Origin: a virus
Reading direction: 5' to 3' (one strand)
DNA: 64,000 nt
IMG/VR virus record: IMGVR_UViG_3300034198_015460
Coordinates: 17,136-81,135 of that record
Shown: positions 6,374 through 64,000 of the stretch, piece by piece
How positions within the stretch are numbered: the stretch's first letter is position 1
How the letters are laid out: each line of letters begins with the position of its first letter
Position numbers and translations under genes: made by a program
The notes under the pieces: model-generated
Database searches by the model: none
Seen by the model: only the letters and a program-made list of their open reading frames with translations
Told to the model about the DNA's origin: nothing

Positions 6374-7015
6374 TCATTGGGCTGTCTGGTCCTGATTCTT
6401 TTTCAGATCTTTTTTTTTATTCTTCTTGCCATCTTCAAGCATCGGCATGGCCAAATCTTCTTCCATTTTTTTAGATTTTTCAGGATGCATGCCATAATAT
6501 GCACCAAGAGCCATGCGTTTACGTTCTTCTTTAGATTTACCAGCAAACTTTGGGTCTTTTGAATGAATGAAATCAGAAATGACTTCTCCAGCAGATGTTT
6601 TTTTGGTTAATACTTCTTGAAGTTTTTTCTTTCCACCAAAAAGCATGCCCTTTTTTCCGGGCTTTGCTTCTTTGGCGCTACAAACACAAAGAGATTCACC
6701 ACATGTTTCACACTTCATTTGCTTGGCTTCATAGACATTTTTAGATTGTCTAGGATATTTTGCTACTTTTGTGCCGCCCTTATAAGGAAATTCTGTGTTT
6801 CCGGCGCGGTCAGCAAATTCTGCTGTTTTATGTATTTTAACAAAATCTTGTTCATCTTTTGACTTGGGCATGTAATCAACATAGGGATCAGAGCCTGTTG
6901 AACCGGGTCTAACAGTTGATTTATTTGAACCTTCTAGTTCCTTTTTATACATAACAAATTTATTGTCTGTTTGACCGGGTGTGGCTTTTACAATATCCCT
7001 TAGAGATTTTGACAT
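6374..7015 (-). CDS. Putative prohead core/internal protein (gp68 position); C-terminus may extend by -1 frameshift to 6315
   Basis: Lys-rich; CETCGESLCVC; ISDFIHSKDPKFAGKSKEERKRMALGAYY module; lies between gp67-like and gp21. Confidence 0.65.
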   Translation of the reverse strand: MSKSLRDIVKATPGQTDNKFVMYKKELEGSNKSTVRPGSTGSDPYVDYMPKSKDEQDFVKIHKTAEFADRAGNTEFPYKGGTKVAKYPRQSKNVYEAKQMKCETCGESLCVCSAKEAKPGKKGMLFGGKKKLQEVLTKKTSAGEVISDFIHSKDPKFAGKSKEERKRMALGAYYGMHPEKSKKMEEDLAMPMLEDGKKNKKKDLKKNQDQTAQ

Positions 7016-16831: not shown

Positions 16832-17431
16832 TTATCCTCCTATATCTTTTTGAGGAGGATTATATCCGGTCACTATTTTCATTCTTCCTATTTTTTGCTG
16901 TTCTGGATCTTTTGAGCCATACGGTATATGAGTAATCATATCAGAAGTTAATGGTTGAGCGAAACCATTAGAGTGTAAACCATGCACTCTCATTTCTGGA
17001 TCACTCATCATTCTATTTAAAGATTTTTGCATGCCTTCGGAATTTTTAGTCCATTCTATAGACGCATTATGAGTTCTTGAAATAGATTTAATAACATCAT
17101 TCATTCTAACAGGAGAACTTTTTCTGCCCTGCGTGGTTGGAAATTGATATGTTATTGATTTATCAGGATTATTTATTTGACCAGCAAATCTAACAGTATG
17201 ATGTATTTTCTTATCTTCTGGATTATATGTGAAATAAGAAGCTCCGCTTCCTGGGGAAGAAGAATGGTATAAATGTAAACCGCCTACTTCTCCAATTTTG
17301 TTAGCGTTTTTATCAAATTTATTTGGATCGTCATAAGTTATAGGTTTTGTGTCGCTGACAATTGGATCTCTTTTTGTTTGAGATATATCGGCGGACCAAG
17401 CTTCTTTTATGTATTTTTTAAATGTCAGCAT
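16832..17431 (-). CDS. Hypothetical protein with capsid-targeting-like N-terminus (putative internal head protein)
   Basis: Starts MLTFKKYIKEA, resembling the T4 internal-protein targeting peptide MKTYQEFIAE. Confidence 0.6.
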   Translation of the reverse strand: MLTFKKYIKEAWSADISQTKRDPIVSDTKPITYDDPNKFDKNANKIGEVGGLHLYHSSSPGSGASYFTYNPEDKKIHHTVRFAGQINNPDKSITYQFPTTQGRKSSPVRMNDVIKSISRTHNASIEWTKNSEGMQKSLNRMMSDPEMRVHGLHSNGFAQPLTSDMITHIPYGSKDPEQQKIGRMKIVTGYNPPQKDIGG

Positions 17432-23840: not shown

Positions 23841-24734
23841 TTACCACCAAGAAACTATAATAACTCCTGGACCACCATCACCACCCCTACCACCTCCTAA
23901 TGAACCTCCAGCACCTCCGCCACCACCCCCAGAACCAAAAGCACCAGCGCCGCCAGCACCCCCAACAAATATTGTGCTTGCACCCGCACCACCTCCGCCT
24001 GAACCTCCACAAGACATGAATGGTTTTGTGAACATTACACCAGCATTACCATTTGTTTGAGAAGCACCACCAGGAATAGTAGGTATAAATCCTGCACCTG
24101 TTATAGCACCACCAGCACCTGTGCTAGCACCACCTGTTCCACCTGCGCCACCTGATACTATAATATTAGCTATAGCACCCCAAGTAACCGCTGAAGGGCT
24201 AACGGCTGAGCTTTCATTCTGCGCACCTCCAGCGGTACCTACTTGACCAATAGAAGTAGTGTATAGACCATAGTTATTCCATCTATCAGAAGTAGAGGCT
24301 GAACCAGCAGTGCCAGCAGCACCTAATGCAATAGAACTTCCACCACCTCCTGCACCACCACCACTTGCACTTAAAACATAATCTCCTGTTGGACCTATGA
24401 GAGCAACATAGCTTACAGTTCCTGCTGTTCCGCCAGTAGAAGCAGCACCACCCGGACCTCCAGGTCCTGGTGAGACGTAAAGGGTATCTGGAATATAACT
24501 AGCAGGTAACATAAGAGTCGTTATTGCACCAGAACCTCCGCCACCACCGCCGCCTCTAGCAGTAGTAGATGAGTTAGTATGACCACCTCCACCTCCACCA
24601 CCACCTCCAACAAGATAGAAATTGAAGTAACTTACACCTCTTGGTTTTATGAAAGTATAGACGTTTGTTGCTTCAGCAAAATAGATCGCATAGTTACCAT
24701 CCATTGATCTCGGTAGATGTGAAAAATCACTCAT
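23841..24734 (-). CDS. Glycine-rich adhesin-like protein, paralog 3
   Basis: MSDFSH..KPRG..GGGGGGGGG..GGPGVIIVSWW. Confidence 0.75.
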   Translation of the reverse strand: MSDFSHLPRSMDGNYAIYFAEATNVYTFIKPRGVSYFNFYLVGGGGGGGGGHTNSSTTARGGGGGGGSGAITTLMLPASYIPDTLYVSPGPGGPGGAASTGGTAGTVSYVALIGPTGDYVLSASGGGAGGGGSSIALGAAGTAGSASTSDRWNNYGLYTTSIGQVGTAGGAQNESSAVSPSAVTWGAIANIIVSGGAGGTGGASTGAGGAITGAGFIPTIPGGASQTNGNAGVMFTKPFMSCGGSGGGGAGASTIFVGGAGGAGAFGSGGGGGGAGGSLGGGRGGDGGPGVIIVSWW

Positions 24735-24735
24735 G

Positions 24736-25644
24736 TTAAAACCCCCAGATCATTACTAAACCAGAACCACCTCGTCCTCCTAAAGAAGAATTTCCAGAGT
24801 TGTTGATATAAGTACCGCCACCGCCGCCGCCAGAACCAATACCCGCATCACCTCCAGTTCCGCCATTACCAGTAGCGGCTCTACAACCTCCACCACCGGA
24901 ACCTCCACAAGACATAAAAGGCTGCATATAAGTAAGCCCAGATTGACCATTAGTTGCAGTTGAACTTGTGCTTCCAGCACCCCCACTGATTGTCGGCATA
25001 AAACCAGCACCAGTTATAGAACCTCCTGTACGCGCTGTTGGCGTTGTAGTACTACCACCACCGCTAGCACCACCGGATAAAATTATAGAACCCCATGTAA
25101 TACCCGCAGATGGCTCTGATGTAGTTCCTGTAGCGCCCGCTTGCCCCGCAAATAAAGAATAACTTCCATAAGACCCAAGAATCATATTTGTAGCAGTTGC
25201 AGCAGCTCCCGCCGAACCACCGGCTGCGCTTCCGGCGCCACCGCCACTTGCATAACATATTACATACGCGGCAGTAGTATTTGGTTGTACAGAAATATAA
25301 GACGCGCCTCCGCTACCACCGGATGTACCATGCGATCCATCGATCGTGCCAGTGTTAATTCCTGCTGATCCTCCAGCGCCTGAATTGACATATAGAATAT
25401 CAGGAATTAGACTAGCATGGATTAACATAGTAGTAATTCCTCCTGAACCACCGCCTCCACCGCCAAAACCATTACTAGCTGAAGCTACTGAGCGTCCAGC
25501 ACCGCCGCCTCCACCGCCACCTATACATACAATATAGATGCTTGTTATTCCTCTAGGCTTATTCCAGACTTGCCATTGAGAAATACTATAATATACTGAA
25601 AAGTTTGATCTGAGATTTTGTGAAATATGTGAGAAGTCTAACAT
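24736..25644 (-). CDS. Glycine-rich adhesin-like protein, paralog 2
   Basis: MLDFSH..WQVWNKPRG..GGSGLVMIWGF. Confidence 0.75.
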   Translation of the reverse strand: MLDFSHISQNLRSNFSVYYSISQWQVWNKPRGITSIYIVCIGGGGGGGAGRSVASASNGFGGGGGGSGGITTMLIHASLIPDILYVNSGAGGSAGINTGTIDGSHGTSGGSGGASYISVQPNTTAAYVICYASGGGAGSAAGGSAGAAATATNMILGSYGSYSLFAGQAGATGTTSEPSAGITWGSIILSGGASGGGSTTTPTARTGGSITGAGFMPTISGGAGSTSSTATNGQSGLTYMQPFMSCGGSGGGGCRAATGNGGTGGDAGIGSGGGGGGTYINNSGNSSLGGRGGSGLVMIWGF

Positions 25645-25648
25645 GTTA

Positions 25649-26569
25649 CTACCATGATGTTATTATTACCAAGCCAGGACCGCCGTTACCGCCAGCACCA
25701 CCGCCACTTGTACCTCCAGCACCGCCACCACCGCCGCCGCATCCATATGTTGCATTACCACCTCTAGCACCTGCTGTTGTCGTTGAGTTAGATGAACCCC
25801 CACCTGACCCTCCAAGAAAAACTAAAGGGACTAAAAAACCAGATCCGGCTACTCCAGCACCCGGAGAAGCGCCACCAGAACCACCAGAAATTATGGTACT
25901 TTGAAAAACTGAAGGTAGTGGTGCACCACCAGTTCCCAAGTTACCTCCCGCAACACCAGAACCGCCTCCACCACCAGCACCGCCAATAGTTATGTCACCT
26001 CCCATGGTTGTGGAACCCGCAGCAGTACCGCTTACAGCACCACCAGCTCCACCAGTATTTCCCGCAACAGCGGTAAATATTGCAAAATTTGAAAAAGTAG
26101 CAGAAGTTGAAACCATAGCAACAGCAGCAGCACCACCAGCAGCATTGAGGGTAGTTGGACCTGCTGCACCCCCACCACCACCATTAGCATAAGCAAGTAA
26201 ATATGCTGCTGTGGTGCTTGGATATAAACTTACATAACTAGCCCCGCCGTCAGAACCATTAACTCCTGAGCCAGTTGAACCAGCACCTCCTCGACCAACT
26301 TGAATGTATAATAAATCAGGTAATAAAAAAGCAGGCACTAATAATCTTGTTGTTGTTCCTTGCGCACCACCCCCGCCACCACCTCTAGAACCGGTAACTG
26401 AATTAGATCGACCGCCACCGCCGCCACCGCCGCCACTAAGACAGAAGATATTGATCATAGAACAGTTGCGAGGTTTATTCCAAACTTGCCATTCTGTAGC
26501 TGCGTTCAATGCATAGAAGTAGTCTATCTTTGCTGTCTGAGAATCAGAAACGTGAGAAAAATCAAGCAT
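25649..26569 (-). CDS. Glycine-rich adhesin-like protein, paralog 1
   Basis: MLDFSH..WQVWNKPRN..GGPGLVIITSW. Confidence 0.75.
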   Translation of the reverse strand: MLDFSHVSDSQTAKIDYFYALNAATEWQVWNKPRNCSMINIFCLSGGGGGGGGRSNSVTGSRGGGGGGAQGTTTRLLVPAFLLPDLLYIQVGRGGAGSTGSGVNGSDGGASYVSLYPSTTAAYLLAYANGGGGGAAGPTTLNAAGGAAAVAMVSTSATFSNFAIFTAVAGNTGGAGGAVSGTAAGSTTMGGDITIGGAGGGGGSGVAGGNLGTGGAPLPSVFQSTIISGGSGGASPGAGVAGSGFLVPLVFLGGSGGGSSNSTTTAGARGGNATYGCGGGGGGAGGTSGGGAGGNGGPGLVIITSW

Positions 26570-26740
26570 TTATTGTTCTATTGTTGTTTTGTAAGACATC
26601 CCAGTATTAGTGACATCTTCTCCATCATCCTTTACTATTCTGACCACCGTAAAATTTGTCTGTTCAACTTCCATCCAGCCTAAACCTTCATGACCACTTA
26701 GGAACTCAATTCTATATCTTATTACGTTGGATTCGCTCAT
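26570..26740 (-). CDS. Small hypothetical protein of the adhesin cassette
   Basis: Tightly packed ORF MSESNVIRYRIEFLSGHEGLGWMEVE. Confidence 0.6.
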   Translation of the reverse strand: MSESNVIRYRIEFLSGHEGLGWMEVEQTNFTVVRIVKDDGEDVTNTGMSYKTTIEQ

Positions 26741-26741
26741 A

Positions 26742-27188
26742 TTAATAGTTACCTGCAATTACAATTGCCGCCCAGTATGTGTTCGTTGCTGGGGCTGAGT
26801 GGTTTGTCACCAATATAGCATAACTTGGAGGAAGTGCAACGTTCATCGGAACGTCGATAGGATATGTAGCAACTGTTGCATTAGCAGCAGAAACTGAAGG
26901 TAAAGCAACTTCTTGAAATAAAGTACATGTAGTATTATTAGCTGTAGTGTTAGATGAACTTATATAAATTCTTCCAACCGTAGCTGTAGTTGAAAGAGCA
27001 GCAGAGTTGGCTACGGGCGACCATCTAACACGCTGTACAAAACTTCCATTTGTTGCATCAGCAGTAAAAGCAAGAAACGTATCAGTACCTACTGTTCCTG
27101 TTCCATCACTTCTTGTTAAACCTGCTGTAACACGTGTTTGACCATAAGCCCCTACTCTACTATAAATTGGTATTTGATTACCAGCCAT
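26742..27188 (-). CDS. Hypothetical virion protein (fibre-tip connector candidate)
   Basis: MAGNQIPIYSR..FTADATNGSFV..LFQEVALP..IAGNY; GGAG SD. Confidence 0.65.
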   Translation of the reverse strand: MAGNQIPIYSRVGAYGQTRVTAGLTRSDGTGTVGTDTFLAFTADATNGSFVQRVRWSPVANSAALSTTATVGRIYISSSNTTANNTTCTLFQEVALPSVSAANATVATYPIDVPMNVALPPSYAILVTNHSAPATNTYWAAIVIAGNY

Positions 27189-27204
27189 CTAGTTTATCTC
27201 CTGT

Positions 27205-27966
27205 TTAAGCCATTGCTAAATTGTTATAAAGAGCCACTATTTGACCCATAGTGTTTAAAATTGAACCATCATTAAAAATTATACCAGATGCAATTATATC
27301 TGTATTAACTGTGCTATTTCCAATAGAAATTGTGTTTGAAATAGTTAAAATTGCTGTAGTTTTATCAAAAGTTAAATTGGCATCACCGCCAAAAGAACCA
27401 GAGTTATTAAATTGTATTTGTGTATTTGAACCTCCAGGAGTCCCAGACCCACCACCTGATACTGTTGACCAATAAGCTGAACTACCATTAGTTGTTAATA
27501 CTTGACCGGCAGTACCTGTGCTACCATTCGCTGATACTGCAACACCACCAAGAGTAATGTTACCGTTAAATGTGGTCGGAACAGAAAGACTAAAAGCACT
27601 TGTAATACTATTAGCAAAAATTGACCATATAGCCCTTTGCCCGTATGCCGTGTTTGTGCTATAGAAAACAAAGTTATCGTCAGTTTGTTGACGCATCGCA
27701 ACAAAAGCTGATGTATTTACTGTTTGAAAATATATATTTTTATCATTATTAAGTGTTAAAGAATTTGTGATACGCTGACTGGTTATATTAGCACCAACTG
27801 TAATTAAATTTGTTCCATCTGATGTATAGAGAATACCATCAGACATATTAAGAGCAAATTCGCCAGCAGCGATATATTGTGAATTTGTCGCATAAGATGC
27901 AGTTGTATTAGGAGTTCTTCCTGAAACAGAAGTTCTCCTTACTTGAAACTTTGTATTAGCAGCCAT
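27205..27966 (-). CDS. Tail fibre-like protein
   Basis: FQVRRTSVSGRTP..AGEFALN..GTAGQVLTTNGS..PGGSNTQIQFNNSGSFGG fibre motifs. Confidence 0.75.
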   Translation of the reverse strand: MAANTKFQVRRTSVSGRTPNTTASYATNSQYIAAGEFALNMSDGILYTSDGTNLITVGANITSQRITNSLTLNNDKNIYFQTVNTSAFVAMRQQTDDNFVFYSTNTAYGQRAIWSIFANSITSAFSLSVPTTFNGNITLGGVAVSANGSTGTAGQVLTTNGSSAYWSTVSGGGSGTPGGSNTQIQFNNSGSFGGDANLTFDKTTAILTISNTISIGNSTVNTDIIASGIIFNDGSILNTMGQIVALYNNLAMA

Positions 27967-27996
27967 GTGGCTTCCTCTTTAATGGCATGTGCCGAG

Positions 27997-28221
27997 TTAT
28001 TGTTCAAAACCGTCTGTATCAGAAGTATTTACTTCTTTTTTATTTATTCTCTTTTCTTTTTTCTCTAATTGTTTTTCTAATTCAACAATTCTTTGATTTA
28101 AAGAAATATTTGTAGCTTCAGAAAACTTCAATTGTGCTTTCATAAAAACATTATTTTTCATCAATTCTTCAATTTCTTTAAATAAAGTTTCAATATAAAC
28201 ATTGACAAACTCAGGTGACAT
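27997..28221 (-). CDS. Small coiled-coil protein (possible fibre chaperone)
   Basis: EFVNVYIE..heptad-rich 74 aa. Confidence 0.55.
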   Translation of the reverse strand: MSPEFVNVYIETLFKEIEELMKNNVFMKAQLKFSEATNISLNQRIVELEKQLEKKEKRINKKEVNTSDTDGFEQ

Positions 28222-56852: not shown

Positions 56853-56946
56853 TGGTACCCCCACTCGGATTCGAACCAAGACCGCGCTCCAATCTAGAGC
56901 ATACCACGGTTATAAGCCGTGCGTTCTACCATTAAACTATGAGGGC
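56853..56946 (-). tRNA. tRNA with UAU anticodon (nominal Ile) and a long variable arm, 94 nt
   Basis: GCCCTCA/TGGGGGT acceptor, GTTT/GAAC D-stem, CACGG-CTTATAA-CCGTG anticodon arm, 24-nt variable region, CTTGG-TTCGAAT-CCGAG T-arm, A73, encoded CCA. Confidence 0.9.
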
Positions 56947-57171: not shown

Positions 57172-57248
57172 TGGCGATCCCTGAAGGATTCGAACCTTCA
57201 ACCTACAGCTTAGAAGGCTGTTGCTCTGTCCGATTGAGCTAAGGGACC
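57172..57248 (-). tRNA. tRNA-Arg(UCU)
   Basis: GGTCCCT..ACAGC-CTTCTAA-GCTGT..GAAGG-TTCGAAT-CCTTC-AGGGATC-G-CCA. Confidence 0.95.
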
Positions 57249-57254
57249 TAATTT

Positions 57255-58373
57255 TTATACCACTTTTAGAAGAATAGTATTTTCGTTTACCCTTTTGGCA
57301 AACGGAGCTTCTCCTTTGATTTCATCCATAAGTTTGCGTAGAACTATTTTACCTCCATTTAGCACTCGGTCAAGGTAATATTCAGTCTTACGTCCAATCT
57401 TTTTTGTCGCAGAAGTTTCTTCGTTATAGTTAACAATTGAAGAACGATTGATTTGCAATCCACCACGATCAATGGCTCTAAACACTGTAAGAGTTTTATA
57501 CTTAGTATTAAACGCCCAAAGTTCTTGAGAACCAATGATTTTTTCAGGATTAACAGAAGCCAATTTGAGTTCTTTATCTTCTTTTTTAAAGACAAAATTC
57601 TTAAGCTTTTTATCAACAGAAATTGCCTTTGGTTTACGTACAGCACGAACCTTTTTCTCATTTGAACCATAGCGTTCGGCATCTTCTAGAATTTTGTTGA
57701 AGAATAAAATGCGTTCTTCTAATTGCTTTTTGGTAAGATGAGAATATCCTTCAACAAGCTGTTCATCATCGCCTTCGTAAGCTCCAACAAGATCGGCGAG
57801 CCATGGCTGATACTTTGGAATGATAAAAGAAACATAAACTGAAGGAACTTCCTTTTTCTTTAACCATTCATAAAGATCAAATTCAAGCCCGTCATCAATC
57901 ATGCCTTCGATCTCACAAAGAATATCATCAGAACGTTCGCGAATTTTCTGTTGAATATCAACACCCTTCTTAACCGGAGCTTCTTCCTCTGAGAAATCTT
58001 TAACTCTCTTAAGAGCTTCTTTGATGCTCTTTTCAAAGAAAGCGTAAGAACTGTCAGACAATTTAGCGCCACGCGAAGTCATTCGCGCAATCCAAGCTGC
58101 AATCTTTGGGTACCAAACATCAGAAACTTTGGCTAGTCTTTTTGCTTCCAAAGCACGATTGTTTTTGCGGAGATAATCTCCTAGATATTGCCTAGCTTCT
58201 TCGTCAGAAGCCATATAATTATACCAGGTCAGAGCCTTAGTATAATCCAAATCTTTTACTGGTCCATTGAAAATGGGCTCGTCACCAAGGTGCTTGCTGT
58301 TGATCAGGTAGGTTTCGCTCTTTGTTGTGCGAACCTTTCGTGTCTTTTTAGCGATAACTTGACGACGAGCCAT
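57255..58373 (-). CDS. Conserved hypothetical T4-like phage protein
   Basis: Long ORF with its own promoter; ALTWYNY..SVNPEKIIG..NTKYKTL..RVNENTILLKV. Confidence 0.7.
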   Translation of the reverse strand: MARRQVIAKKTRKVRTTKSETYLINSKHLGDEPIFNGPVKDLDYTKALTWYNYMASDEEARQYLGDYLRKNNRALEAKRLAKVSDVWYPKIAAWIARMTSRGAKLSDSSYAFFEKSIKEALKRVKDFSEEEAPVKKGVDIQQKIRERSDDILCEIEGMIDDGLEFDLYEWLKKKEVPSVYVSFIIPKYQPWLADLVGAYEGDDEQLVEGYSHLTKKQLEERILFFNKILEDAERYGSNEKKVRAVRKPKAISVDKKLKNFVFKKEDKELKLASVNPEKIIGSQELWAFNTKYKTLTVFRAIDRGGLQINRSSIVNYNEETSATKKIGRKTEYYLDRVLNGGKIVLRKLMDEIKGEAPFAKRVNENTILLKVV

Positions 58374-58399
58374 TTCAGTTCCCTTCAATTTATGGTAGT

Positions 58400-58428
58400 A
58401 TTATACTATACACCAAGCCTAAAGTCAA
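58400..58428 (-). promoter_or_regulatory. sigma70-like early promoter
   Basis: TTGACT-N17-TATAAT. Confidence 0.82.
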
Positions 58429-59384
58429 GCGGCTTCTGCCATCTCCACCGCCAATTCCAAAGCCTTAGTCTTAAGACCCTTGTTATAACCATACCAAGAA
58501 GAAGTAAGACGAGTATCAGCAGAACGCCCAGCGAGATGATCCGTAAGATACGTAACAGCGTTGAACGGTTGCCACCAGGTTCCCTGGGCGAACTCGGATC
58601 CAGGCTGGGTCTCAAGGATATCAAGAGCCATCTTTGCGTTCTTTGAGATTTCCTTGGTCTTGGTTTCATTAGCGCCAGAAACGGGGAAGATGCGCTTGAA
58701 GTAGTCAACAACATTTTCGCCAGTAGCACGCTTAGACCCAAGAAACTGAGCCATTTCCTTATACTTGGAAAGCTTGTCTGTGGCGATTCCAAGCATATCC
58801 TTAACGTTGTCGGGATTAAACTCGCGACGATGAGAAATCTTCGCCATCCGTTCAACCTTGGAATTCAAGGAAAGAGTCAGAGTATTGTTACATACCACAC
58901 GGATCGGCGTGAACCGAACGTCGGTGGAGAAGCCATACTTATGGAAGTTAGAAAAAAGCAAATAAGAGTCGATCCGATCGCCTTTGAAAAGCTCAAAGGA
59001 TTCCTTGATCTTAGCCAACCCCCAGACGATCTGGCCGTCACGAAGAGAACCAGCAGTATGCATCTCCATATCGCCAGCAGTCACATACTCATTGAAGAAA
59101 TCAAAGGCATCTGCATTCTGCACAGGATTCCAGTCGTCAGAAACGACATCAAGAATTTTGTCGTCCATAGAACGAACAAGAGCAGACTGGCCGATCCGAA
59201 CCTGCTTTCCACCGACTTCGGCGTAAGCAGGAATCTTTTCGACTTCCCAATTCAGACCAGCCGCCTCGAGCATCTGCTCGGGAGTCAGGTCGGAGGGAAC
59301 CTTCGTCCCCAGGCCATGCCAAGGAACATCGCCAGCGTAAGCCATCTGAGCCTTGCCATTGATCGTTTCAATCATATGAGCCAT
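58425..59384 (-). CDS. DUF932/DUF945-family phage/plasmid protein
   Basis: MAYAGDVPWHGLG..AAGLNWEV..PVQNADAF..TAGSL..FTPIRVVCNNTL..GTWWQPFNAVT. Confidence 0.88.
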   Translation of the reverse strand: MAHMIETINGKAQMAYAGDVPWHGLGTKVPSDLTPEQMLEAAGLNWEVEKIPAYAEVGGKQVRIGQSALVRSMDDKILDVVSDDWNPVQNADAFDFFNEYVTAGDMEMHTAGSLRDGQIVWGLAKIKESFELFKGDRIDSYLLFSNFHKYGFSTDVRFTPIRVVCNNTLTLSLNSKVERMAKISHRREFNPDNVKDMLGIATDKLSKYKEMAQFLGSKRATGENVVDYFKRIFPVSGANETKTKEISKNAKMALDILETQPGSEFAQGTWWQPFNAVTYLTDHLAGRSADTRLTSSWYGYNKGLKTKALELAVEMAEAA

Positions 59385-59436
59385 TTTTTTATCCTTCACA
59401 TTTGTCAGAGGACCATCCCCCAACCATCATGTAGAT

Positions 59437-59848: not shown

Positions 59849-60847
59849 TTAGAAACTCGCTCTTGCAATATATTCAAACGCAGCGCCAAGAAAAGCAGCA
59901 GCAGGAATTGTGAGAATCCAAGCTACAACAATCTCTTGTGCTTTTTTCCATTTTACTTTGGGGTCTGCTTGACTTGCGCCAACGCCCAAAATAGAACCAG
60001 TAATTGTATGTGTCGTGCTCACAGGAATTCCTAATGAGGAAGCCACAAACAACATTGTACCACCACCGACCTCTGCTGTCAATCCATTTTTTGGCTCTAG
60101 ATGAGTCAATTTAAACCCAAGTGTTTGTACAATTCTCCAACCACCAGCCAGTGTACCAAGACCCATTGCAATAAAGCTAGCATAAATTGCCCAAATAGGA
60201 ATAGCCGAACTTGTTGTAAGTACATTACCAGCAATAAGAATTAACCAAATAATACCTGCTGTTTTTTGTGCATCATTAGCGCCATGACCCATAGAATAAA
60301 ATGCACACGAAACAATTTGTCCATATTTAAAATATTTTTGTTGTGTTGGAGTTTCTGTAGGAAATACATTACGCATAATTGTATTGAGACCAGCACCAAG
60401 AATAAAGCCAATACAAGGAGAGGCGACAATAAAAATTAATGTTTTTGAGAGACCTTCCCAAAGAAGAATTGACATACCTGATTTAGCAACAGCAGCACCG
60501 ACTAAACCGCCAATAAGAGCATGACTTGAGCTTGTTGGAAGACCAAAATACCATGTAATAATATTCCATGATATAGCTCCTGACAGAGCACCAAAAAGTA
60601 CATAAAGATCAACAGCAGAAGGGTTCACAATTCCTTTACCAATAGTCGCAGCAACAGTAAAGGTAATAAAAAACACCACGATAAAATTACTGGCGGCTGC
60701 TAGTGCGACCGCCTGTTTCGGAGTTAAGGTTTTTGTTGCAACAACAGTAGCAATAGAATTCGCTGCATCATGAAATCCATTTGTGAAATCAAAAATAAGT
60801 GCAAGGATAATCAATCCAATAACAGTAATAATTCCAGTTTCAATCAT
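59849..60847 (-). CDS. pit: Inorganic phosphate transporter, PiT/PHO4 family
   Basis: Two signature motifs GFHDAANSIAT and HGANDAQK; GLPTSSSHALIGG; GIPVSTTH. Confidence 0.95.
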   Translation of the reverse strand: MIETGIITVIGLIILALIFDFTNGFHDAANSIATVVATKTLTPKQAVALAAASNFIVVFFITFTVAATIGKGIVNPSAVDLYVLFGALSGAISWNIITWYFGLPTSSSHALIGGLVGAAVAKSGMSILLWEGLSKTLIFIVASPCIGFILGAGLNTIMRNVFPTETPTQQKYFKYGQIVSCAFYSMGHGANDAQKTAGIIWLILIAGNVLTTSSAIPIWAIYASFIAMGLGTLAGGWRIVQTLGFKLTHLEPKNGLTAEVGGGTMLFVASSLGIPVSTTHTITGSILGVGASQADPKVKWKKAQEIVVAWILTIPAAAFLGAAFEYIARASF

Positions 60848-61588: not shown

Positions 61589-62149
61589 TTATTTTTTTCC
61601 TTTTTTTGAGATAAGTTTGGATGCAACCTTTTCAATTGAAATTGAAGCAGCAGAAGAAACATTAAGAGAGCGCATAACTCCATATTGAGGAATTGAATAA
61701 ACAACAGCGTCTTTTAGATATTCGGATGGAACACCATTTGATTCATTGCCAAAAATGAGACAGGGCTTCTTACCTCTATAGGGAAGAACGCTGATTTCAT
61801 CAATTGGATAACCACCTTGTTCAATAAACACAGAATAATATCCTTGATTCCAGAGATACTCATCCAGTTCTTGTGGATTTGGTGTTCTATCAAGAAAATC
61901 AATAGGAATATAGTTCTGTGATCCAACGCATGAACGACGATCAAATCTATGTTCACCAATAACAAAAAACTTTTCGGCAGAGAAACAACAAGCAGTTCTT
62001 AGAATAACACCGGTATTGAGAGAACCTTTAACATTAAAACAAGCAACAGAGAAAGGTAGTGCTGTGTTTTTATATAGTGTAACAAGATCAGAGAAATTCC
62101 ATGTCTTGTATTCATCAATAACATTAAAAGATTCACATGTTTCCGACAT
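61589..62149 (-). CDS. SpoU/TrmH-family RNA 2'-O-methyltransferase
   Basis: NTGVILRTA (motif 1), LIFGNESNGV (motif 2), IPQYGVMRSLNVSSAA (motif 3). Confidence 0.92.
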   Translation of the reverse strand: MSETCESFNVIDEYKTWNFSDLVTLYKNTALPFSVACFNVKGSLNTGVILRTACCFSAEKFFVIGEHRFDRRSCVGSQNYIPIDFLDRTPNPQELDEYLWNQGYYSVFIEQGGYPIDEISVLPYRGKKPCLIFGNESNGVPSEYLKDAVVYSIPQYGVMRSLNVSSAASISIEKVASKLISKKGKK

Positions 62150-63856: not shown

Positions 63857-63955
63857 TGTTTTTTCCTGGATGAACCTTTGGAGGCTTTTTTGCGTGCGAA
63901 AAAATTTTTGAAACACGTTTTTTGAAAACACGTTTAGAATAAGGGGGGGGGGTTC

Positions 63956-64000
63956 TTCGCACTTTTTCGCACTTTTTCGCACTTTTTCGCACTTTTTCGC
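63956..64000. repeat. 10-bp tandem repeat (ACTTTTTCGC)n running off the window end
   Basis: Four exact copies at 63961-64000 plus a partial copy; G10 run at 63943-63952. Confidence 0.9.

Follow-up and report, generated by a model that had tools for sequence, protein, structure and literature searches.

In bacteria the codon AUA is usually read by tRNA-Ile2 with the anticodon CAU, a tRNA that is also found in phage T4. The known solutions to the AUA/AUG problem are lysidine (TilS) or, rarely, a plain UAU tRNA in combination with an adapted isoleucyl-tRNA synthetase (IleRS) and an adapted ribosome, and the tRNA family described here would add a portable one. The starting point was a tRNA gene with the anticodon UAU in a stretch of 64,000 nucleotides of viral DNA (IMG/VR record IMGVR_UViG_3300034198_015460, positions 17,136 to 81,135). 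This whole stretch, in the following called the window, is the 3′ 64 kb of a contig of 81,135 bp with a G+C content of 34.6%. The window tRNA contains an extra arm with GAU in its loop, and by its sequence it belongs to a large family that is found in phage tRNA clusters and in horizontally mobile long tRNA arrays of bacteria. The GAU in the arm loop and the large conserved family are the main point of this analysis, and both had been missed in a preliminary description that was made from the sequence alone.

Several described systems resemble the window tRNA in part. The tRNA-Ile2(CAU)/lysidine system also supplies the rare reading of AUA, often alongside tRNA-Arg(UCU), but it has another anticodon, depends on TilS and has no extra arm. 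The tRNA-Ile(UAU) of bacteria without TilS, as presented for Mycoplasma mobile (PMC3575796), shares with the window tRNA an unmodified-type UAU anticodon, the reading of AUA without lysidine, and A73. In contrast to the window tRNA, it is described there as a tRNA of class I length without an extra arm, and it relies on Arg865 of IleRS and on a ribosome that rejects AUG. The allo-tRNAs (PMC5389517) are bacterial and phage-associated and have a long extra arm, the non-serine anticodon UAU is among their predominant anticodons, and Acidobacteria are frequent carriers. However, they have an 8/4 or 9/3 arrangement of acceptor and T stem and a 12-bp branch, they are tRNA-Sec-like, and serine identity or a non-translational role was proposed for them. 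The nematode nev-tRNA-Ile(UAU) (PMC3333845) combines UAU with a long variable arm, but it comes from eukaryotes, its body is of the Leu-type class II kind and it accepts leucine in vitro, whereas ATA aligns as isoleucine in the phage of the window and the arm is built differently. In published full text, no description was found of a tRNA(UAU) with a 7/5 arrangement and a GAU-loop arm (supplements, which possibly list such genes, were not covered).

A tRNA(UAU) gene family with a covarying extra arm

The tRNA gene is genuine. The Rfam model RF00005 matched it over model positions 1-71 of 71 with a score of 57.6 bits (gathering threshold 29; E = 3.8e-11) and with a 21-nt insertion in the variable region, and the E-value together with a conserved, covarying family places the window tRNA far beyond chance. 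The acceptor stem GCCCUCA/UGGGGGU starts with the pair G1.U72, the D arm GUUU-AAUGGUA-GAAC has a 4-bp stem and a 7-nt loop and is thus of the class I kind, and the T arm is CUUGG-UUCGAAU-CCGAG. The elements that had been listed in the preliminary description, i.e., the length of 94 nt, the UAU anticodon in a CU-UAU-AA loop, G1-U72, A73, the encoded CCA, and the 24 nt that separate positions 43 and 49, were all recovered with ARAGORN, with Rfam and in the sequence itself; the gene is located on the minus strand, which had not been named. The last U of the 3′ tether can pair with A15 as a putative Levitt pair.

An 8/4 fold of the allo-tRNA type was considered and rejected, because the window tRNA has a 7-bp acceptor stem and a 5-bp T stem, the T stem of the relatives covaries as 5 bp, and no pair between position 65 and U8 can form in family members such as the tRNA of locus L004. 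The wobble pair G1.U72 was also found in other tRNAs of mobile sets (phage and array), with frequencies of 0.67 for Glu, 0.45 for long UAU, 0.34 for Leu and 0.26 for Arg. As it is frequent across several mobile isotypes, G1.U72 in the window tRNA may reflect membership in a mobile set and need not be a mark of the extra-arm tRNA(UAU) family.

Relatives were collected from IMG/VR with a scan that was constrained only by the motif CTTATAA, a long spacing and the T loop. It yielded at least 128 loci with 813 tRNAs, and like all pattern scans of viral and bacterial sequences used here it gives a lower bound on the size of the family. Among the matches listed, 76 of the 813 tRNAs had a UAU anticodon, 75 of these 76 were at least 85 nt long, and 67 sequences were unique. 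The acceptor, D, anticodon and T stems of the long tRNA(UAU) were almost wholly divergent. The extra hairpin, in which a stem of 3-5 bp is closed by a loop of 7 nt, was present in 64 of 68 of them, including the window tRNA (among the matches listed). In the loops of these 64 arms, position 1 was C (45) or U (19), position 2 was A in 56, positions 3-5 were GAU in 62 and GAC in 2, position 6 was U in 44, and position 7 was A in 46 and G in 14. The family was defined by a UAU hairpin, 1-6 nt, a 3-5-bp stem with the loop Y-A-G-A-Y-N-R, 4-7 nt, the T arm and A73. This build was found in the window tRNA and in 147 of the 153 unique phage and bacterial sequences among the matches listed.

The arms were compared with a specifically written anchored parse and a 17-nt arm alignment; alignments of whole tRNAs with MAFFT were poor in the 5′ half and in the arm. 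In a covariation set that admitted only arms able to form the three inner pairs, for which 147 of 153 unique sequences qualified, the stem of 148 arms (85 distinct) was paired in 96.5% of the cells, compared with 58.9% after shuffling, and there were 99 double changes versus 23.9 in the shuffles, while slid controls paired in 29-50%. The arm thus covaries, and the comparison supports a stem of 4-5 bp with a loop of 7 nt that reads Y-A-G-A-U-N-R, followed by a long tether on the 3′ side. The fold UGCUCUA-GAU-UGGAGCG that had been proposed earlier, with 7 bp and a 3-nt loop, is possible for the single sequence, but the 148 related arms favor 4-5 bp and the 7-nt loop UAGAUUG. A possible interaction between the arm loop and either the T loop or the anticodon loop was inspected by eye and dismissed, as neither T-loop positions 59-60 nor position 38 covaried with the arm loop.

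The preliminary description had assigned the arm to class II. This is appropriate insofar as the variable region is longer than 10 nt and forms a stem-loop between the anticodon and T arms, as it does in the class II tRNAs for Leu, Ser and Tyr. The loop size, the tether, the D arm and the anticodon are, in contrast, not of this kind. In the ARAGORN folds of the long UAU tRNAs the arm loop comprised 7 nt in 42 of 57 cases and the 3′ tether 5-6 nt in 52 of 57. For the Ser tRNAs of the same loci, the tether had 1-2 nt in 54 of 56 and the loop 4-5 nt in 47 of 56; the corresponding fractions for Leu tRNAs were 23/23 (1-2 nt) and 21/23 (4-5 nt), and Tyr tRNAs had a tether of 3 nt (20/22) and a loop of 4-6 nt (20/22). 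Class II arms are thus characterized by short loops and 3′ tethers of 1-3 nt, whereas the family of the window tRNA has a conserved 7-nt loop, a tether of 4-6 nt and a class I D arm. In addition, the window tRNA has neither a class II Leu, Ser or Tyr anticodon nor the G73 of Ser tRNAs, but UAU and A73. By its build, the arm is not of the Leu/Ser/Tyr class II type.

The link between the arm and the UAU anticodon is exclusive in a second scan, which was anchored in the arm with CCAGATTAG...GGTTCRANTCC (the commonest arm loop plus the T loop) and left the anticodon arm unconstrained. A UAU hairpin was present upstream in 98 of the 98 unique viral matches listed. In each case no fewer than 4 of the 5 stem pairs could form, the loop had 7 nt and UAU occupied positions 34-36; the anticodon loops were CUUAUAA (41), CUUAUAC (27), UUUAUAA (8), and others (22). 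In a collection of 383 viral loci (among the matches listed), 167 of 179 tRNA(UAU) were long and 161 of these 167 carried the arm motif. It was also detected in 5 of 259 other long tRNAs of these loci (122 Ser, 88 Leu, 31 Tyr, 18 others), one of which was a UAU tRNA that ARAGORN had mis-framed as Leu(UAA). A third set comprised 80 loci of relatives chosen by gp32 (53-71% identical), 20 of which contained tRNAs; Arg(UCU) was present in 18 and tRNA(UAU) in 9 of the 20. All nine tRNA(UAU) were 91-95 nt long and had the arm, and their bodies were of quite different subtypes.

Cultured phages also carry members of the family. The tRNA of locus L119 was 100% identical to a sequence of Synechococcus phage S-SRM01 and 82% identical to one of S-SKS1, and the Lactobacillus phages LpeD and Lpa804 were matched as well. 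The extra-arm tRNA(UAU) was confirmed in S-SKS1 (L512 2496-2586) and in LpeD (L513 1489-1580). In the RefSeq records of S-SRM01, S-SKS1, LpeD and Lpa804 no feature is annotated under the extra-arm tRNA(UAU). For the window tRNA and its 1.1-kb surroundings, and for the tRNAs of loci L100 and L001, blastn retrieved no match among GenBank phages. Queries with short phage tRNA(UAU) matched, among cultured phages, mostly genes for tRNA-Met, Ile, Arg and Lys (74-81% identity), and the hosts of short and long forms could thus not be contrasted in this way. In the stretch of LpeD, none of the nine tRNAs called by ARAGORN is annotated, one call has a 4-nt anticodon, and a gene for an HNH endonuclease lies inside the cluster. 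The tRNA cluster of another viral locus (L083) is accompanied by a match to a permuted tmRNA (6477-6635, minus strand; RF04321, 64.3 bits) and a Ro60 homologue.

Bacterial relatives were found by scanning 185,579 species genomes with CTTATAA...AGAT...GGTTCRANTCC, which yielded at least 120 loci. ARAGORN called a long tRNA(UAU) in 92 of the 120 loci listed, and 72 of these 92 belong to clusters with five or more tRNAs within 8 kb, 56 of them to clusters with ten or more. According to the record titles among the matches listed, the carriers include many Acidobacteriota (Pyrinomonadaceae, Blastocatellia, Bryobacterales), Rhodobacteraceae, Azoarcus, Acidithiobacillus, Nostoc, and others. At least one gene for an RtcB ligase, a 350-aa HNH protein or a Ro60/TROVE protein was present in 45 of the 120 loci listed. 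These loci are the "L-arrays" of Santamaria-Gomez et al., which are reported to spread by horizontal transfer, to be preceded by an HNH gene, to be co-regulated with rtcB and to be induced by translational stress, with cleavage of some array tRNAs (PMC8421152). The bacterial relatives occupy such arrays, with HNH and RtcB genes nearby as described there. In contrast, "UAU" is absent from the main texts of the L-array papers and the extra arm is not mentioned in main-text passages; their supplements were not covered. An array usually contains one GAU tRNA, one CAU tRNA and one long UAU tRNA, which fits the long UAU tRNA as the AUA decoder of the array. In an Acidobacteriota metagenome-assembled genome, GOLLD RNA (178 bits) was detected within an array of 34 tRNAs (L218 1890-2365).

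ATA codons and the probable isoleucine identity of the tRNA

The phage of the window makes extensive use of ATA, which accounts for 570 of 1927 isoleucine codons (30%; 22.3 per thousand). The ATA count is zero in the major head gene and in gp32, and by this count the codon is avoided in the most highly expressed genes. The meaning of ATA was determined by comparison with related phages, i.e., 80 loci with a gp6 that was 49-59% identical. The open reading frames (ORFs) of the contig were compared to these loci by tblastn, which resulted in 752 alignments of 21 ORFs, and the residues of the relatives were tallied for each query codon at positions covered by at least five relatives, with exclusion of the relatives' own ATA codons. 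The 80 loci contain no tRNA, and no synteny information could be derived from them.

At 199 ATA positions the fractions of aligned residues were.348 I,.215 V and.146 L. The values were.360 I,.253 V and.134 L for 264 ATT positions and.329 I,.219 V and.136 L for 44 ATC positions, whereas 423 Leu codons gave.112 I,.088 V and.518 L. In the profiles of Val, Met and Ser codons the respective own residue predominated. The result was similar at strongly conserved positions, defined by at least 70% agreement among at least eight relatives: the 51 ATA positions aligned to I (31), V (8), L (6), F (3), K (2) and A (1), the 87 ATT positions to I (51), V (23), L (8) and others (5), and Leu codons to L in 163 of 182 cases. 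As the profile of ATA matches those of ATT and ATC and departs from that of Leu codons, ATA is used as isoleucine in the phage. A check of the residues that align to ATA codons had been suggested in the preliminary description in view of a possible recoding of AUA, and at the genome level the alignment over 21 ORFs led to a rejection of recoding to Leu or Ser. A second suggestion made there, namely a TilS-independent AUA decoder for an AT-rich phage, is supported by the number of ATA codons, by their alignment, and by the isoleucine identity elements of the tRNA.

The determinants of bacterial tRNA-Ile are A73, C4-G69, U12-A23, G16, U20, U21, C29-G41, a modified C or G at position 34, A35, U36, A37 and A38 (PMC9976931). 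Of this set the window tRNA has A73, C4-G69, U12-A23, U20, C29-G41, A37 and A38. Position 16 is U and position 21 is A, and the anticodon is U34-A35-U36, with U in place of G34 or lysidine-34; GAU is present solely in the loop of the extra arm. Within the family, A73 is conserved in 144 of 147 sequences, G69 in 46 and C29-G41 in 61. The tRNA is probably charged with isoleucine.

The GAU hairpin and its possible roles

The triplet GAU, which serves the major tRNA-Ile of bacteria as its anticodon, is displayed by the arm at loop positions 3-5, as an anticodon would be. The third pair from the loop, which is equivalent to pair 29-41, is C-G in 46 of 63 distinct arms. The frequency of C29-G41 is 0.80 in array tRNA-Ile(GAU), 0.49 in CAU tRNAs, and 0.0-0.3 in most other isotypes. 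In 46 of 63 phage arms the last nucleotide of the loop (position 7) is A, matching A38, and the combinations at positions 1 and 7 are mostly C/A or U/G. The UAU arm begins one nucleotide after the D stem, and the GAU arm is followed by 5-6 nt like those of a class I variable loop. Each of the two arms is thus joined canonically on one side, the UAU arm at its 5′ end and the GAU arm via its 3′ tether, and therefore either of them might stack under the D stem; as far as the secondary structure indicates, either hairpin may occupy the position of the anticodon arm in the L-shape.

These features led to the proposal that the GAU hairpin is a handle for IleRS. In a mobile tRNA set, the TilS of the host might not be reliable for a foreign CAU tRNA, and UAU would be used instead. 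Bacterial IleRS with a Trp-type zinc-binding domain would charge U34 tRNAs poorly: the E. coli enzyme is reported to charge a UAU tRNA at 1.1% of the level of the lysidine-containing LAU form, which is relieved by W905R (PMC3575796). A need for a handle is also suggested by array hosts: an R-C-W motif was present in the zinc-binding domain of IleRS in five of five taxonomically diverse ones, and TilS scored above the curated cut-off in five of five Acidobacteriota array hosts. We take the motif to be equivalent to R888-C889-W890 of the S. aureus IleRS by motif and distance to the C terminus only. Hosts of the M. mobile type, which lack TilS (PMC3575796), differ from the array hosts in this respect. 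IleRS would take the GAU hairpin as an identity element in cis, which would offset the poor recognition of U34, and the UAU arm would decode on the ribosome. The explanation as a whole, i.e., a phage tRNA that is functional, decodes AUA as isoleucine independently of lysidine and TilS, and has the arm as a proposed IleRS handle, is put forward with slightly less than even confidence. The handle function of the arm taken by itself is tentative, and we doubt it somewhat more than we trust it. That the two "anticodons" are separated, so that the synthetase would read the GAU hairpin and the ribosome the UAU arm in a natural cis-acting mimic of an anticodon arm, is conceivable but rather doubtful.

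Several findings weigh against the handle. Class I synthetases bind tRNAs with the variable region toward the solvent. Loop position 2 of the arm is A, and not U33, in 55 of 63 phage arms, and position 6 is A in merely 9 of 63, so that the determinant for N6-threonylcarbamoyladenosine at position 37 (t6A37) is mostly missing from the arm. Isotype scoring, which had also been suggested before, did not group the body of the tRNA with tRNA-Ile(GAU). A crude profile, which was trained with 1264 of 1309 parsed tRNAs (UAU and stop-anticodon tRNAs excluded) and was correct in 316 of 400 leave-one-out tests (79%), gave the window tRNA 1.4 bits for Arg, 0.1 for Thr, -6.2 for Leu and -9.0 for Ile. It placed most of the long UAU tRNAs (38 that fit a strict bracket parser) in the heterogeneous Arg class with low scores. 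The samples of array hosts in which TilS and the R-C-W motif were detected are small, and none of these bacteria is the host of the window phage. Class-I-length tRNA(UAU) exist in phages, namely 12 of 179 in the 383 loci and, among the matches listed, 8 loci for a flanking pattern that yielded 9 long ones, so that the arm is not obligatory. Finally, the arm is present in Lactobacillus phage LpeD, although a UAU-permissive IleRS is reported for the host group: L. plantarum has an Arg-type IleRS and its own chromosomal tRNA-Ile(TAT) (PMC3575796).

The last finding would fit a second reading, in which the tRNA is an isoleucine AUA decoder with an arm that serves fidelity or modification, either by recruiting or excluding an enzyme that acts on U34 or the anticodon loop, or by reshaping the anticodon arm so that AUA and not AUG is read. 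A fidelity problem does exist, as a UAU tRNA reads AUG besides AUA on E. coli ribosomes (PMC3575796). The strict link of the arm to UAU in all 98 matches listed would also fit, as would a gene for a SpoU-family 2′-O-methyltransferase 4.6 kb away. However, such a role leaves the precise GAU loop and the Ile-like C-G pair unexplained, and none of the candidate enzymes shares the conservation of the arm; the protein of the SpoU family stays under every curated cut-off and was looked at in the window phage only. This role is considered to be unlikely.

Alternatively, conflicts over tRNA could be the setting in which the arm acts, as a shield, decoy or sensor; the preliminary description had raised a decoy or replacement against anticodon nucleases. 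The GAU hairpin would then bait or block a nuclease or toxin directed against tRNA-Ile, or the molecule would have a mainly non-translational function, as has been suggested for allo-tRNA(UAU) and, in the form of "sponges", for array tRNAs. This idea is kept alive by the RtcB, Ro60 and HNH neighbors of the bacterial arrays, and it is in line with the location of most bacterial family members in arrays of at least five tRNAs, with the stress induction of L-arrays and the cleavage of some of their tRNAs (PMC8421152), and with the non-translational functions that Mukai et al. proposed for allo-tRNA(UAU) (PMC5389517). Yet a decoy could ride on any tRNA, and the arm occurs solely with UAU; this strict coupling favors a role that is tied to the Ile/AUA problem over a general decoy. 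Furthermore, homologues of RtcB, HNH and Ro60 are absent from the window phage at E <= 1e-6, its 570 ATA codons need a decoder, the CCA is encoded and the cloverleaf is canonical. A conflict role is thus regarded as quite improbable.

Charging by the leucyl- or seryl-tRNA synthetase, which would result in Leu or Ser at AUA by recoding or deliberate mistranslation, had been raised in the preliminary description. In bacteria, Leu identity depends mainly on A73, and the listed Leu features include a large variable region (PMC9976931); in addition, the nematode nev-tRNA-Ile(UAU) is leucylated in vitro (PMC3333845, PMC4300185). The ATA positions, however, align like isoleucine and not like Leu or Ser, A73 occurs in 0 of 59 Ser tRNAs of the same arrays, U12-A23, which is present in the window tRNA, occurs in 0 of 114 array Leu tRNAs, the arm is built unlike Leu and Ser arms, and the crude profile is negative for Leu. 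Such charging as the function of the tRNA is very improbable; a low level of mischarging with Leu or Ser would be compatible with the sequence evidence. That the arm is a neutral, functionless relic of an insertion into an ordinary tRNA-Ile(UAU) is hardly credible, because its loop is near-invariant while the acceptor, D, anticodon and T stems diverge completely, its stem covaries and it is retained in phages and bacteria alike, even though class-I-length tRNA(UAU) work in some bacteria (PMC3575796) and exist in phages.

If the handle proposal is true, the GAU hairpin would be a new kind of identity element, in which the anticodon for charging is uncoupled from the anticodon for decoding, as code engineers attempt by design. 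Mobile tRNA sets with two such anticodons would be able to decode AUA where IleRS rejects U34 and TilS is unreliable. The gene is missed or misnamed in routine annotation, and its length and arm invite a Leu or Ser label. The cultured systems of cyanophage and Synechococcus and of the Lactobacillus phages make the question of the arm directly accessible to experiments.

Surroundings of the tRNA gene

The coordinates of the tRNA gene, its parts and neighboring genes are summarized in Table 1. A greedy ORF call with translation table 11 resulted in 98 ORFs that cover 95% of the window, and this coverage does not suggest stop-codon recoding. PHROG and Pfam searches revealed the markers of a T4-like phage, namely the major head protein, portal, sheath, baseplate wedge proteins, gp32, gp59, and the late-transcription coactivator, and the contig is assigned to a T4-like phage on this basis. 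The nearest cultured relatives according to gp6 (33-35% identity) are Caulobacter phage Cr30, Sinorhizobium phage phiM12 and Pelagibacter phage HTVC008M.

Table 1. Location of the tRNA(UAU) gene, its structural elements and selected neighbors (window coordinates)
Feature	Position	Strand	Basis and remarks
tRNA gene, 94 nt, anticodon UAU, 7/5 cloverleaf plus extra arm	56853..56946	-	ARAGORN tRNA-Ile(tat); Rfam; sequence
Anticodon arm CACGG-CUUAUAA-CCGUG, with C29-G41, A37, A38	56905..56921	-	Sequence, Rfam; UAU = 56912-56914
5′ tether GUA, joining anticodon stem to extra arm	56902..56904	-	Anchored parse
Extra arm UGCUC-UAGAUUG-GAGCG	56885..56901	-	Parse and covariation; GAU = 56892-56894, loop positions 3-5; C-G at the 29-41-equivalent pair
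3′ tether CGGU, ahead of T stem	56881..56884	-	Parse; 5-6 nt in most relatives
Discriminator A73 and encoded CCA	56853..56856	-	Sequence; A73 in 144/147 relatives
tRNA-Arg(UCU), same small cluster	57172..57248	-	ARAGORN; Rfam 72.4 bits
PHO4/PitA-like inorganic phosphate transporter gene	59849-60847	-	Pfam PHO4, E = 3.9e-88
SpoU-family 2′-O-methyltransferase gene	61589-62149	-	Under curated cut-offs of RlmB, TrmL and TrmH

According to ARAGORN, tRNA(UAU) and tRNA-Arg(UCU) are the only two tRNA genes of the window, and both are on the minus strand. AGA makes up 57% of the Arg codons in the phage. The pair of tRNA genes recurs upstream of gp59-gp32 in relatives. Around the two genes, four promoter-like sites were found, compared with an expectation of 3.6, and the scan detected no terminator. 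Directly upstream of the pair are genes for a DUF932/TIGR03299 "phage/plasmid-like protein" and a phrog_11903 protein (window 58425-59423 and 57255-58388, both minus strand). The phosphate transporter gene is likely to be an auxiliary metabolic gene.

Upstream of the window, at the start of the contig (G000:C1:80-853), ARAGORN called six further tRNAs, i.e., two Glu, Thr, Asn, Met(CAU), and a doubtful Arg(GCG) without CCA; the stems are mismatched in several of them. A G+C-rich island was observed at 24001-28000, with a G+C fraction of 0.441 versus 0.32-0.36 in most other 4-kb windows and a strongly negative GC skew. At the end of the contig (window about 63950-64000) a run of G is followed by tandem copies of a 10-nt unit (CGCACTTTTT), which may represent an assembly end or a terminal repeat.

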